A DNA stretch of 64,000 nt from Candidatus Dormiibacterota bacterium (GCA_027313505.1 DAHVDN010000004.1:27716-91715), one strand, 5' to 3'. Positions 1-6,121 are shown, counted from the stretch's first letter. Notes: generated from the letters alone by a model not told the origin. A program made the numbers and translations.

Positions 1-2136
1 CAGCTTGCGCGACGGGGTCAACCATCCCGCGGTGGCCGTGCCATCCTCGTGCACCAGGCCTAGGGATCCGGCCTCGCCCACCAAGGGCGGGGCCTCGTCG
101 TCACGGACCGGCCGGCGCAGCACACCCTCCTCGTCCGGTGAGAAACCTCGCATCTCAAGTTCAGTCAGCGGCCGCTCATCTAGCCGGTACTGATCCTTGG
201 CAAGCTCAACCACACCGAACTTGCGCATGTACGCCAGAGGGGACAGCCCCACCGCGGCCGCCTTTTCCGGAAGTCCCGGTACGTTGTTCTCAAATACCCA
301 GCGATAGTAGTCGTCCACCGTTATCCGCTCTCCGGGCCGATACGGCGACTCGAAATAGCGACGAATCCCGAGCTGGCCATCGGGGTCGATCCGCCATGAC
401 AGCTCGAACCAGAACTCGTTCTCCTCCCACACCTCCCCGGGGTTGGCGTCCCTGGTGTCCCGAACCACCTCTCCCCGGCGTTCCATCGCCACCCGTCTGA
501 CCGGCTGCCGGAATGCCAGCCACTTGCCGGAATGGGTCTCGTAGGACTGGGTGTCGTGCCGCTCCGCCGAGTGGCCCATGGGCAGCACGTAATCCGCGAA
601 CTGGGCGGTCTCCGACCAGGTCGGGGTCAGCGCCACGTGACAGCCGACCAAACTCTCGTCGGTCAAGGCCTCCATCCAACTGAAACCATCAGGGTTGGTC
701 CAGACCGGGTTGTAGACCCTGCTGAAGTAGACCTCGAGATGGCCCCGCCCGTCCTTGAGCAGATGCGGCAGCAGAAAGGACATCTCATTGGTTGAGGTCG
801 GATACTCCTGGGGCCAGGCAAGCTCGTTCCACTCGGTCACAGGGGGCGGCATGTTGGGTCCGTGGGGAATGAACTTGTCCCATCCGTTCGGGCTCGTGCC
901 CCCCTTGGTCCCGACGCTGCCCGTCAGCACCACCAGCAGCCACAGGCAACGGGCGACCTGCCAGCCTCCGTAGTTGCCAGCGCAGGCGGAGCGCCAGACG
1001 TGCGTCGCCAGCCTGTGGTCCGAGTTGGCCACCAGCTCCGCCAGCCTCTCGACCTCCTCCACAGGGATCTGCGCCTCTTCGGCTGCGAACTCAAAGGTGT
1101 ACGAGGAGTAGTCCGACTCCAACCTCTCGAGGAAGCTCTCGAAGGTCACCGGCTCAAGCGGATGCATCTCCCTCAGATAGGTCCGCCAGTTCACCCAGCG
1201 GCTGACGAACTCCCGATCCACCCTTCTTGTGCGCAGGAGGTAGGAAGCGATCGCCAGCAGGATCGCCGCCTCACTTCCGGGCCAGGGCGAGATCCATAGG
1301 TCAGCCTTGGCCGCCGTGTTGGACAGCCTCGGGTCAATCACCGCCAGCCGTGCCCCGTTCTGCCTTGCCTCAATGATTCTCTGGGCATGGGGGTTGAAGT
1401 AGTGGCCGGTCTCCAGATGGCTGGAGAGGAGCAGGATCACCTTGGCGTTGGCGTAGTCAGGCGAGGGCCGATCGTACCCCGCCCACAGGGTCATCCCCAA
1501 CCTGGCCCCGGCCGAGCAGATGTTGGTGTGGCTGTTGTGGCCATCCACTCCCCAGGCCATCAGAAACCGCTCCGCGAACCCATCCTCTCCGGGACGTCCG
1601 ACGTGGTACATGACCTCCCGCCGCCGGTTCTCCAGGATCGCCGTGCGAATGCGCTGGGCAATGTCGTCCAGCGCCTGGTCCCAGCTGACATCCTCCCACT
1701 GCCCACCGCCTCTTGGGCCCACCCGGCGCTGCGGGTGAAGTATCCGCTCCGGATCGTCCAATTGATTCACCGTGGCCGGACCCTTGGCGCAATTTCTCCC
1801 CCTGGAGCCGGGATGGGCGGGGTTCCCCTCCAGCTTTCGGATGGAGAGATCCTCGTGGTCCACGTAGGCCAGCAGACCACACCCGCTCTCACAGTTGAAA
1901 CAGGTGGTGGGCACCAGGGTGTAGTGGTGCTCCACACGCCTCGGGTGAGCCTTGGCGTCTAACTCAACGTGGTCATCCCAACTCTCCACCGGTGGGTAGT
2001 TGCTCAAATGCTCGTGGCGGCGCTGCCCAGGCAGTTCCACAGAGCCCCCGATCGGGGCCTTTGGGCCGGCAGCGCTGCCGCCTTCGTCCCTAGGAGAGAG
2101 GGACATCCTGACCGGCTCGCACAAAGGCGGTTTCAT
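1..2136 (-). CDS. Molybdopterin (bis-MGD) oxidoreductase catalytic subunit of the Psr/Phs/Ttr/Soe type. Partial: the C-terminus runs off the window start. The Mo ligand is Cys, not Sec.
   Basis: The track misses this gene because it has no in-window stop. Hand translation of the minus strand is stop-free from 2136 down to 1. The N-terminus reads MKPPLCEP...HHYTLVPTTCFNCESGCGLLAYVDHEDLSIRKLEGNPAHPGSRGRNCAKGPATVNQLDDPERILHPQRRVGPRGGGQWEDVSWDQALDDIAQRIR. That gives the classic N-terminal C-x2-C-x3-C...C 4Fe-4S motif and the W..ISWDEAL motif. Further in, ...GHNSHTNICSAGARLG... places a Cys at the Mo-ligand position. There is no RRxFLK Tat motif. An alternative start lies at 2106. The gene overlaps the upstream gene stop at 2090, consistent with translational coupling. 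Confidence 0.8.
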   Translation of the reverse strand, partial: MKPPLCEPVRMSLSPRDEGGSAAGPKAPIGGSVELPGQRRHEHLSNYPPVESWDDHVELDAKAHPRRVEHHYTLVPTTCFNCESGCGLLAYVDHEDLSIRKLEGNPAHPGSRGRNCAKGPATVNQLDDPERILHPQRRVGPRGGGQWEDVSWDQALDDIAQRIRTAILENRRREVMYHVGRPGEDGFAERFLMAWGVDGHNSHTNICSAGARLGMTLWAGYDRPSPDYANAKVILLLSSHLETGHYFNPHAQRIIEARQNGARLAVIDPRLSNTAAKADLWISPWPGSEAAILLAIASYLLRTRRVDREFVSRWVNWRTYLREMHPLEPVTFESFLERLESDYSSYTFEFAAEEAQIPVEEVERLAELVANSDHRLATHVWRSACAGNYGGWQVARCLWLLVVLTGSVGTKGGTSPNGWDKFIPHGPNMPPPVTEWNELAWPQEYPTSTNEMSFLLPHLLKDGRGHLEVYFSRVYNPVWTNPDGFSWMEALTDESLVGCHVALTPTWSETAQFADYVLPMGHSAERHDTQSYETHSGKWLAFRQPVRRVAMERRGEVVRDTRDANPGEVWEENEFWFELSWRIDPDGQLGIRRYFESPYRPGERITVDDYYRWVFENNVPGLPEKAAAVGLSPLAYMRKFGVVELAKDQYRLDERPLTELEMRGFSPDEEGVLRRPVRDDEAPPLVGEAGSLGLVHEDGTATAGWLTPSRKL

Positions 2137-4768: not shown

Positions 4769-6121
4769 ATGCAAGTGGTGGTTGTGGAAACGCCTGAACT
4801 GGGAGACCGCAGTTACCTGGTTCATGATGGCAGCTACGGGTTCGTGGTCGACCCCCAACGAGATGTCGACCGCCTCCTAGACCGGATCGTGAGCGCTGGA
4901 GTAAGGATCACCCACGTTTTCGAGACTCATATTCACAACGACTACCTGAGCGGCGGACTGACGCTGGCAAACCTAGTGGGCGCCGAGTACTGTGTGGCGG
5001 CCGCCGACTCCGTGGAGTTTCCCCGCCGCCCGGTTCTGGACGGTGACGACTTTGAGTCCGGCACCCTCACGGTTAGTGCTCTTCATACGCCCGGTCACAC
5101 GCCGAACCACATCTCCTACGCGGTCACCGAAGCCGGCCGATCAGTGGCAGTGCTGACCGGGGGATCGCTCCTCTACGGCACCGTGGGTCGTACGGATCTC
5201 ATAGATCCGGCGCTGACCGACACCCTCACCAGAGATCAGTACCGGTCAGCCCGGCGGCTCATGGCAGACCTCCCGCCTTGGACCAGGGTCCTGCCCACAC
5301 ACGGCTTCGGAAGCTTCTGCGCGTCCGTGGGAACGTCGAGCGCCGGGGCTGGAGATATCGCCAGTGAACTCGCTCAAAACCTGGCAGCCACCTCTTTGGA
5401 CGAGACTTCCTTCGTGGCCGCGGTCATCGCTGGACTGGGTCCGTACCCCTCCTATTACGCCCACATGGCTCCGCTCAACCGAATAGGTCCAACCCCCTTT
5501 GCCGAGATTGCGGAGATCTCCGAGCTGGACTCGGAGGCGCTTTGCCGCCGACTGCAGGGTGACGCTTGGGTCATCGACACCAGGCCGCGCAGAGATTTTG
5601 CGACCGCGCACCTCAAGGGCACCGTCGGGATGGAGCTGGCCACCAGCTTCTCGACCTACGTCGGCTGGCTCTCGCCGTTCGGCAGCTCTCTGACCCTGCT
5701 GACCGAGGGTCCCGCTGACTTCCGCACGGCTCGCCGGGCCCTATCCCGGATCGGTCTGGACAAACTTGAGGCCAGCACCATCGGATTCACGGGCAACTCC
5801 GCCCTGCTGGAGGTGAGCGGCTACCCGGTTACTGACTTCGACGGTCTGGCGCGTGGTCTGCCCGAAGGAGCTGCTGTGCTCGATGTGCGCCAAGCCGAGG
5901 AGTGGCGAGCCGGCCATCTGGCTGGTTCGAGAAACATTCCAATTCAGGAGCTATCCCAAAGAATGGACGAGCTGCCAAACCAAGAGTTCTGGGTCCACTG
6001 CGGCGTCGGCTACCGCGCCAGCGTCGCTGCCAGCCTTCTTGACCGGTCGGGCCACTCGGTGGTCCTCGTTGACGACGACTTCAGCAACGCTGAGGCCGCC
6101 GGCTTGCCCATCGAGAACTGA
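4769..6121 (+). CDS. Persulfide dioxygenase (MBL fold, ETHE1-like) fused to two rhodanese domains, CstB-like
   Basis: The N-terminus has the MBL metal motifs HIHNDY and HTPGHTPNH. Two rhodanese modules follow at the C-terminus. The second has the active-site loop VHCGVGYRASVAA. At 450 aa the length matches CstB-type fusions. Confidence 0.8.
   Translation: MQVVVVETPELGDRSYLVHDGSYGFVVDPQRDVDRLLDRIVSAGVRITHVFETHIHNDYLSGGLTLANLVGAEYCVAAADSVEFPRRPVLDGDDFESGTLTVSALHTPGHTPNHISYAVTEAGRSVAVLTGGSLLYGTVGRTDLIDPALTDTLTRDQYRSARRLMADLPPWTRVLPTHGFGSFCASVGTSSAGAGDIASELAQNLAATSLDETSFVAAVIAGLGPYPSYYAHMAPLNRIGPTPFAEIAEISELDSEALCRRLQGDAWVIDTRPRRDFATAHLKGTVGMELATSFSTYVGWLSPFGSSLTLLTEGPADFRTARRALSRIGLDKLEASTIGFTGNSALLEVSGYPVTDFDGLARGLPEGAAVLDVRQAEEWRAGHLAGSRNIPIQELSQRMDELPNQEFWVHCGVGYRASVAASLLDRSGHSVVLVDDDFSNAEAAGLPIEN

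Follow-up and report, generated by a model that had tools for sequence, protein, structure and literature searches.

The first 6,121 nt of a 64,000-nt stretch of DNA from a Candidatus Dormiibacterota bacterium (GCA_027313505.1, DAHVDN010000004.1:27716-91715; the whole stretch is hereafter called the window) encode a molybdoenzyme complex, termed BC-A, in which an iron-sulfur (FeS) module and a membrane anchor are joined in one polypeptide (BC) and followed by a catalytic subunit (A), together with a regulator and a metallo-beta-lactamase (MBL)-rhodanese protein. The locus raises the questions of which side of the membrane this complex works on, which reaction it carries out, and whether its build is exceptional. 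Sequence analysis indicated that BC-A is a membrane-bound, predicted cytoplasm-facing complex iron-sulfur molybdoenzyme of two polypeptides and an unexceptional member of a family that is both very common and strongly conserved. With confidence slightly above even, we regard it as a SoeABC-like cytoplasmic sulfite:menaquinone oxidoreductase.

A two-polypeptide molybdoenzyme without export signals

On the minus strand, the genes for the regulator, BC and A are co-oriented, and the MBL-rhodanese-rhodanese gene is divergent on the plus strand. The initial annotation had described an FeS-NrfD fusion followed by a molybdopterin catalytic subunit with overlapping stop and start, and the open reading frames (ORFs) and domain matches bore this out. 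BC (2090..3634, minus, 514 amino acids (aa)) lies in an ORF spanning 2090..3694, with ATG 3634 as the likely start and GTG 3694 as a possible extension, and the 514-aa protein P0279 is 100% identical to BC read from ATG 3634. Subunit A (1..2106, minus) starts at ATG 2106 and is cut by the window edge, leaving 702 aa inside the window; the BC stop (2090-2092) and the A start share a 17-nt overlap. The full-length counterpart of A is P0001, a 964-aa protein about 100% identical to the window fragment. The nearest loci were found in Candidatus Dormibacterota metagenome-assembled genomes (MAGs), with A 92% identical in L008 and an identical gene order in L001-L003.

The window fragment of A matched PF04879 (Molybdop_Fe4S4) and PF00384 (Molybdopterin, MopB), with PF01568 (Molydop_binding) present in P0001. 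Its FS0 [4Fe-4S] motif reads CFNCESGC...C, and the Cys of its TNICSAG stretch aligned to the SLC(173)TAP stretch of Thermus thermophilus PsrA, in which Cys173 is the Mo ligand. By these motifs, A is a predicted molybdenum-bis(pyranopterin guanine dinucleotide) (Mo-bisPGD; DMSO reductase, MopB) catalytic subunit with a Cys at the Mo ligand position. No twin-arginine translocation (Tat) signal was found in A, either in the window protein or across the BC-A family; orthologs have RT or RS in place of the "RR" in GQRRHEH, and this motif is not followed by a hydrophobic stretch. BC likewise carries no signal peptide or Tat signal, its first FeS motif lying right at the protein start; the first annotation had likewise noted no twin-arginine signal in either protein.

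Both Fer4_11 (four Cys clusters) and NrfD matched the BC ORF, placing a four-cluster [4Fe-4S] ferredoxin, the B domain, at 3035..3634 and an NrfD/PsrC-type anchor with eight transmembrane (TM) helices, the C domain, at 2093..2941, both on the minus strand. An alignment of 79 distinct BC orthologs showed eight hydrophobic segments in the anchor and no hydrophobic segment between the FeS domain and TM1, indicating that the FeS domain lies on the same side as the anchor N-terminus. Averaged over the BC-A family, the anchor loops contain 10.6 Lys and Arg residues on the FeS side and 1.4 on the opposite side, which by the positive-inside rule argues for a cytoplasmic FeS domain, and hence a cytoplasmic A. 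Both termini of the C domain, the presumed quinone site, would then lie on the FeS (cytoplasmic) side. The cytoplasmic orientation suggested earlier is thus supported by the absence of Tat signals, by the FeS-anchor fusion and by the charge bias. The AlphaFold2 model of BC contained eight long helices at a predicted local distance difference test score (pLDDT) of about 90, matching ActC and PsrC. Its FeS part matched PsrB at 42% identity (Foldseek) and was modelled at low confidence, which makes the model uninformative on the packing of the B and C domains.

Sulfur genes around BC-A and the proposed reaction

The Tat-less enzyme SoeABC couples cytoplasmic sulfite oxidation to quinone reduction (PMC8076601, PMC4378227, PMC5114278). 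SoeABC-like genes have been reported in Gram-positive bacteria (PMC4378227, PMC5114278), among them those of Sulfobacillus, TPY_0113 (A), 0114 (B) and 0115 (C) (PMC5114278), and Wells et al. described a bSreA/SoeA radiation that is large, with 1,354 genome hits, and collapses at 50% identity (PMC10100899). Like BC-A, SoeABC of Allochromatium vinosum and Aquifex aeolicus combines Mo-bisPGD, four-cluster FeS and NrfD-type modules, carries a Cys Mo ligand, faces the cytoplasm with Tat-less catalytic and FeS parts, and is linked to genes of sulfane-sulfur oxidation. To our knowledge, it is the only characterised enzyme built in this way, and SoeA, at about 960 aa, matches the 964-aa A in size. With catalytic and FeS parts in the cytoplasm, the anchor must be inverted relative to PsrC.

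To describe the surroundings of BC-A, we counted MBL-rhodanese, TusA, DsrE, sHdr, SQR, TauE, CstR-like and SulP genes as sulfur genes. At least one was present in 52 of the 62 BC-A-related loci that are flanked on each side by 5 kb or more, supporting the sulfur role that had been proposed from the window; in the window itself, the remaining 58 kb contained none. In the fetched flanks of 88 loci, MBL-rhodanese genes accompanied 49 loci, SulP sulfate-type permeases 25, Rhodanese-YgaP 17, TusA or DsrE 15-16, TauE 12, SQR-like genes 11, CstR-like genes 10 and sHdr-like sets 3. The composition varied between lineages. In Rhodococcus the order is dsrE2-tusA-BC-A-mrp, and the flanks contain three MBL-rhodanese genes, DUF202 genes, thioredoxin and ArsR-type regulators. 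The surroundings in Mycolicibacterium include sHdr-like genes, DsrE, TusA, an SQR-like gene, MBL-rhodanese, TauE, a CsoR-family (CstR-like) regulator and DUF302. A CsoR-family regulator lies directly upstream of BC-A in Thermomicrobium roseum, SulP directly follows the gene for an Mrp-type ATPase in Saccharomonospora, and a Myxococcota relative (41% identity) is accompanied by MBL-rhodanese and two Sulf_transp genes.

Considering the adjoining sulfate/sulfite-type exporters and putative sulfite-making systems, the cytoplasmic facing of the complex and the precedent of SoeABC, a sulfite:menaquinone oxidoreductase is the best explanation of BC-A. In this scheme, A would oxidise cytoplasmic sulfite to sulfate and feed the electrons into respiration, passing them along the four B-domain [4Fe-4S] clusters to menaquinone bound in the fused NrfD-type C domain. 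The sulfite would come from oxidation of sulfane sulfur by the adjoining MBL-rhodanese-rhodanese protein in the window and from CstB-type dioxygenases or sHdr in other genomes. Substrate, reaction direction, quinone partner, regulation and the activity of the MBL-rhodanese protein are all features that we infer.

Several points weigh against this assignment. The function of BC-A is read from its context only, and no nearby sulfur gene was found in 10 of the 62 well-flanked loci. BC-A departs from soeA-soeB-soeC, in which B and C are separate among three subunits, both by its fusion and by having BC ahead of A, and its likeness to SoeA is one of architecture. The nearest kin outside the Tat-less group are Tat-exported enzymes, and the best hidden Markov model (HMM) matches are to reductases (PhsA, TtrB, TtrC), far below the cut-offs. 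Finally, the only candidate sulfite producer in the window is without the canonical Asp iron ligand.

The presence of TusA and DsrE among the neighbours raised a further reading, in which the enzyme oxidises TusA- or DsrE-bound persulfide or thiosulfonate rather than free sulfite, as a molybdenum-based alternative or addition to sHdr/rDsr. The dsrE2 and tusA genes are directly upstream of and co-oriented with BC-A-mrp in Rhodococcus, Nocardioides-type and other loci, in keeping with such a role. However, TusA and DsrE are absent next to BC-A in the window and in most loci, the complete sHdr-like set beside BC-A in Mycolicibacterium points to a complementary rather than a redundant enzyme, and we know of no Mo-bisPGD enzyme that acts on a protein persulfide. 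We consider oxidation of carrier-bound sulfur improbable.

A substrate outside sulfur metabolism (formate, nitrate, arsenate or selenate), with the sulfur neighbourhood reflecting shared regulation or a shared mobile island, appeared highly improbable. Some orthologs are labelled "formate dehydrogenase" or "anaerobic selenocysteine-containing dehydrogenase", and the BC-A island of Rhodococcus jostii RHA1 lies on a plasmid beside metal-resistance genes. Such labels are, however, generic and automatic. In the NCBIfam search, no formate, nitrate or arsenate equivalog came near its own cut-off, and a neighbour-joining (NJ) tree placed the clade next to Phs/Psr-like enzymes. The link to sulfur genes also recurs across Actinomycetota, Dormibacterota, Thermomicrobium and Myxococcota under different regulators.

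If BC-A is a sulfite:menaquinone oxidoreductase, it would supply the final sulfite-to-sulfate step of the SQR/persulfide dioxygenase and sHdr routes in its carriers and link sulfide detoxification to respiration in these groups. Public annotation names A a "molybdopterin-dependent oxidoreductase" or, misleadingly, a "formate dehydrogenase", and surveys of sulfur cycling by gene markers might then miss or mislabel the enzyme.

An Mrp/NBP35-type ATPase gene directly follows A in 61 of the 88 loci (examples are L004 10865-12019, L006 10837-11970, L007 10849-11967 and L090 10897-12057), and this companion, found in most Actinomycetota and in Natrinema, is a further difference from SoeABC. The ATPase carries an N-terminal FeS_assembly_P (DUF59) domain, its gene often overlaps A, and it may serve specifically in FeS-cluster maturation of a cytoplasmic molybdoenzyme lacking a TorD-type chaperone. 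None of the Dormibacterota loci has it; there, a tyrosyl-tRNA synthetase gene follows A.

Tat-exported relatives of BC-A

Matches to named families and folds point towards reductases. Against the NCBIfam models, which include none for SoeA, A reached 151 bits with PhsA (cut-off 694, so that the equivalog level was not reached) and 83 bits with TtrA (cut-off 1750). The best match of the B domain was TtrB (193 bits, cut-off 416), and TtrC was the second-best match of the C domain (24 bits, cut-off 314). The AlphaFold2 model of full-length P0001 (pLDDT 90.5) had ArrA and PsrA as its best folds in the PDB, at target TM-scores of 0.77-0.79 and 18-20% identity.

The nearest proteins outside the Tat-less group, P0126 (47% identity), P0143 (37%) and P0180 (36%), carry RRxFLK-type Tat signals. 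The P0126 and P0143 loci, and a more distant operon on an Azoarcus plasmid, encode a separate B (212-236 aa) and C (285-290 aa) and then A, with a TorD-like chaperone present in the P0126 and Azoarcus operons. All Tat-less relatives checked were BC-fused, and the Tat-bearing ones kept B separate in the same B-C-A order. A plausible explanation is that a folded B exported together with A cannot be tethered to the anchor, a constraint that is gone once the enzyme is cytoplasmic. The pairing of "no Tat" with "B fused to C" offers a simple sequence rule for predicting orientation in this superfamily.

In the NJ tree, which used a PGAP-named PhsA as reference and an Arx-like protein as outgroup, the Tat-less family and the Tat-bearing B-C-A enzymes formed one clade in 100/100 bootstraps, separate from and next to the Phs/Psr-like sequences. 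Among the best 150 representatives of 50%-identity clusters, a list rich in fragments, all full-length proteins above about 335 bits with an inspected locus were BC-fused or Tat-bearing; those inspected were P0124-P0126, P0130 and P0143, with P0121 (60% identity) left out. The only full-length tblastn matches on plasmids outside the BC-A family were B-C-A type operons of Sulfurovum and Azoarcus. As weak evidence, the cluster list suggests that the closest relatives of A do not include classical, unfused SoeA; the nearest relatives examined are Tat-exported B-C-A enzymes, and SoeA was compared by description only.

The B, C, A order had been likened initially to ttrBCA, a comparison supported by the TtrB and TtrC matches, by the NrfD-type anchor and by the separate B, C and A of the Tat-bearing relatives. 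In contrast to TtrBCA, BC-A has no Tat signal, has B and C fused and faces the cytoplasm, and its TtrA, TtrB and TtrC scores fall far below the equivalog cut-offs. With PsrABC/PhsABC, BC-A shares the position of the Cys ligand and the eight-helix anchor fold, with PsrA (2vpw) among the closest structures and PsrB as the match of the FeS domain, whereas those enzymes are periplasmic, Tat-dependent and about 760 aa in size, and BC-A falls into a separate NJ clade.

These relationships bear on the possibility that the same complex runs reductively, with menaquinol reducing a sulfur compound in the cytoplasm (polysulfide or persulfide, thiosulfate, tetrathionate), for instance as a means of disposing of surplus sulfane sulfur. 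The best family matches (PhsA, TtrB, TtrC) are reductases, ArrA and PsrA are the closest solved folds, and the Tat-bearing relatives have TorD-like chaperones, as is typical of respiratory reductases. All HMM scores lie far under the family cut-offs, however, and the neighbours of BC-A are oxidative or sulfur-carrier proteins (MBL-rhodanese, sHdr, SQR, TusA, DsrE) together with SulP/TauE exporters. Moreover, the carriers appear to be mostly aerobic soil heterotrophs, and the reduction of thiosulfate by menaquinol is energetically unfavourable. Taking both sides together, we consider a reductive role unlikely and retain sulfite oxidation as the preferred reading.

As a bolder scenario, which we put forward tentatively and hold to be doubtful as a whole, BC-A would be a lineage separate from SoeABC, in which a Tat-exported B-C-A sulfur or oxyanion reductase turned cytoplasmic through loss of Tat and fusion of B to C. 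Soil Actinomycetota, Dormibacterota, Thermomicrobia and some Myxococcota and haloarchaea would now rely on it as their main sulfite (or carrier-bound sulfur):menaquinone oxidoreductase, and with a re-wired, His-rich, Asp-less MBL-rhodanese partner it would form an undescribed heterotrophic route from sulfane sulfur to sulfate.

A downstream TorD-like chaperone and a 4Fe-4S protein (about 360-380 aa) are common to the Tat-bearing operons at L093 857-8720, L098 4245-12136 and L088 5844-12131. L093 and L098 follow the B, C, A order; for L088 the annotation upstream of A gives only a separate nrfD. L093 additionally encodes, upstream, a ParA/Mrp-like ATPase and a c-type cytochrome. Partial matches in Thioclava and Cereibacter were considered as SoeABC candidates and rejected, being an unrelated MopB operon and an Arx-like operon, respectively. 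The latter, a distant match on Cereibacter azotoformans pORIO3 (L096 3783-10200), encodes 4Fe-4S, MopB, 4Fe-4S, NrfD and TorD proteins with a PhnD-type sensor and a two-component system, and is unrelated to BC-A.

Distribution of the BC-A pair

The initial annotation regarded the combination and the BC fusion as unusual, a view that did not survive wider comparison. Subunit A has more than 8000 database relatives, of which the best 120 are 72-100% identical, and a scan with one genome per species found at least 530 genomes, from Actinomycetota and Dormibacterota, that encode a relative. Of the 88 loci compared, 82 include DNA upstream of A, and every one of these has a BC fusion immediately before A; the best 120 BC homologs are all fused, at about 485-546 aa. 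The fusion is thus the norm across a very large family rather than an oddity, and the window locus is an ordinary member of it. In the literature searched, no Soe-like enzyme with B fused to C was found described for Actinobacteria, Dormibacterota or Thermomicrobium, and the BC-A family is a variant of the complex iron-sulfur molybdoenzymes for which we found no prior description.

Named sources among the best 120 relatives of A belong to Dormibacterota or Actinomycetota orders only, with Rhodococcus, Mycolicibacterium, Pseudonocardia, Saccharomonospora and Actinomadura as examples. Many soil Actinomycetota, including Rhodococcus, Pseudonocardia and several Mycobacterium and Mycolicibacterium species, carry the enzyme at 72-77% identity, and it is present in Dormibacterota too. 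The BC-A pair also occurs on the R. jostii RHA1 plasmid pRHL3 (70% identity, L092, RHA1_RS43840/43835; the metal-resistance genes noted above adjoin this island), a T. roseum megaplasmid (59%, L089) and the Natrinema halophilum plasmid unnamed1 (54%, L090). Four further haloarchaeal plasmids, compared for A only, carry A at 49-52%, and BC-A is present in relatives at 41-46% identity, including a Myxococcota MAG. The plasmid location in three distant lineages, together with the 72-77% identity of A between Dormibacterota and Actinomycetota, suggests that the module has spread horizontally.

One relative departs from this pattern. P0123, a 676-aa protein of a low-GC organism, matches only residues 268-955 of A at 51% identity (L101 786-2816), without a recognisable N-terminal part or an upstream BC gene; it lies on a short contig with uninformative neighbours and may represent a truncated gene or pseudogene.

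A remodelled metal site in the MBL-rhodanese-rhodanese protein

The divergent gene (4769..6121, plus) encodes a 450-aa protein with an MBL fold, a pseudo-rhodanese domain and a catalytic rhodanese domain, a CstB-like architecture. Its closest solved structures are 3tp9 of A. acidocaldarius (1e-60) and 3r2u (8e-37), in gap-free, nearly full-length alignments; 3r2u, whose PDB title is only "metallo-beta-lactamase family protein", we take to be CstB of Staphylococcus aureus. With CstB and 3tp9 the window protein shares the MBL fold, the Cys-less rhodanese-like domain and the catalytic rhodanese, as well as the conserved Cys that follows HG-GS and the CX4R loop of the rhodanese. The residues kept are H54, H56, D58, H110, H178, C184 and the rhodanese loop C411-GVGY-R (C411-X4-R).

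The 2-His-1-Asp iron site of this family corresponds to H79, H135 and D154 of ETHE1. The window protein keeps both His ligands, but Gly replaces the Asp, as it does in all 41 window-type orthologs; the alignments to 3tp9 and 3r2u show the same change. The Asp is retained in the two other MBL-rhodanese types found near BC-A in Actinomycetota, CstB-type and Rhd-MBL, apart from a single one of the 15 CstB-type copies. The remodelled site comprises H54, H56, N57, D58, Y59, H110, H114 and G132. Five residues are invariant or near-invariant in the Asp-less subfamily and differ from CstB-type proteins, namely N57, Y59, G63, H114 and Q157 (A57N, F59Y, H63G, S114H and L157Q relative to CstB). Such strict conservation of altered residues argues for a re-wired metal site, perhaps a His-only one, rather than a dead enzyme. 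The earlier description of a CstB-like persulfide dioxygenase fusion stands for the three-domain layout and the rhodanese Cys; the loss of the iron-ligand Asp makes persulfide dioxygenase activity uncertain and the name not yet justified. Loss of metal-binding residues had been named with the initial annotation as a point that would count against its reading, and it applies here in part. How the metal sites of persulfide dioxygenases can change is a separate question posed by this subfamily.

The Asp-less MBL-rhodanese gene of Rhodococcus (L004 16168-18280; L092 17462-20892) is paired with a major facilitator superfamily transporter and a divergent ArsR-helix-turn-helix-rhodanese fusion regulator, a second and different regulatory setting for this subfamily.

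The GntR/HutC regulator and the intergenic region

The regulator gene (3740..4525, minus) lies upstream of BC-A on the same strand with a 105-nt gap; its ORF extends to 4663, with ATG 4525 as the likely start, and its Dormibacterota orthologs are 274-286 aa. Matches to PF00392 (GntR winged helix-turn-helix, N-terminal) and PF07702 (UTRA, C-terminal) place it in the HutC subfamily of the GntR family, unlike the CstR associated with CstB. It is divergent from the MBL-rhodanese gene, as initially annotated. A GntR regulator is a conserved partner: the fetched flanks of 50 of the 88 loci contain a homolog, and 18 of 41 window-type MBL-rhodanese genes have one no more than 600 bp away.

The regulator-MBL-rhodanese intergenic region contains a palindrome of the form GT(C/A)CG(G/T)AC, GTCCGGAC in the window (4709..4716, no strand assigned). 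In all five Dormibacterota loci compared, it is conserved at one aligned position while the rest of the spacer varies. This GT-N4-AC palindrome fits the GT-N-AC type of GntR operator, and it follows closely on a weak promoter-like site (TTGAGA, 17 nt, TAGCAT; 4672..4700, plus) that precedes the MBL-rhodanese gene. One such site was found as against 0.7 in shuffled sequence, which makes it weak evidence. Judged from sequence conservation, the regulator probably controls the divergent genes through this candidate operator. The palindrome was not above background in Actinomycetota loci, and the proposal is limited to Dormibacterota.

Other genes in the window

The region at 9642-24769 contains an unrelated catabolic cluster encoding a short-chain dehydrogenase/reductase, two Amidohydro_2 proteins, two acyl-CoA ligase-type enzymes, a TrmB-type regulator, an F420-dependent luciferase-like monooxygenase (LLM) family oxidoreductase, a benzoylformate-decarboxylase-like thiamine pyrophosphate (TPP) enzyme and a Liv-type ATP-binding cassette transporter. 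The luciferase-like and TPP enzymes at 16.6-19.6 kb were considered as SsuD/Xsc-type sulfonate-degrading sulfite producers and rejected, since they are the F420-dependent LLM oxidoreductase and the benzoylformate-decarboxylase-like enzyme; no link of the cluster to sulfonates was found. Closer to the module, the window encodes a lone large subunit of the xanthine dehydrogenase/CO dehydrogenase family (6794-9091, plus), whose best NCBIfam match, glyceraldehyde dehydrogenase alpha, is below its cut-off and beside which no medium or small subunit genes were seen. A large subunit of this family adjoins the module in the window and in four Dormibacterota-type loci (L001, L002, L008 and L013), and in the actinobacterial MAG loci L046, L067 and L069 it comes immediately downstream of A.

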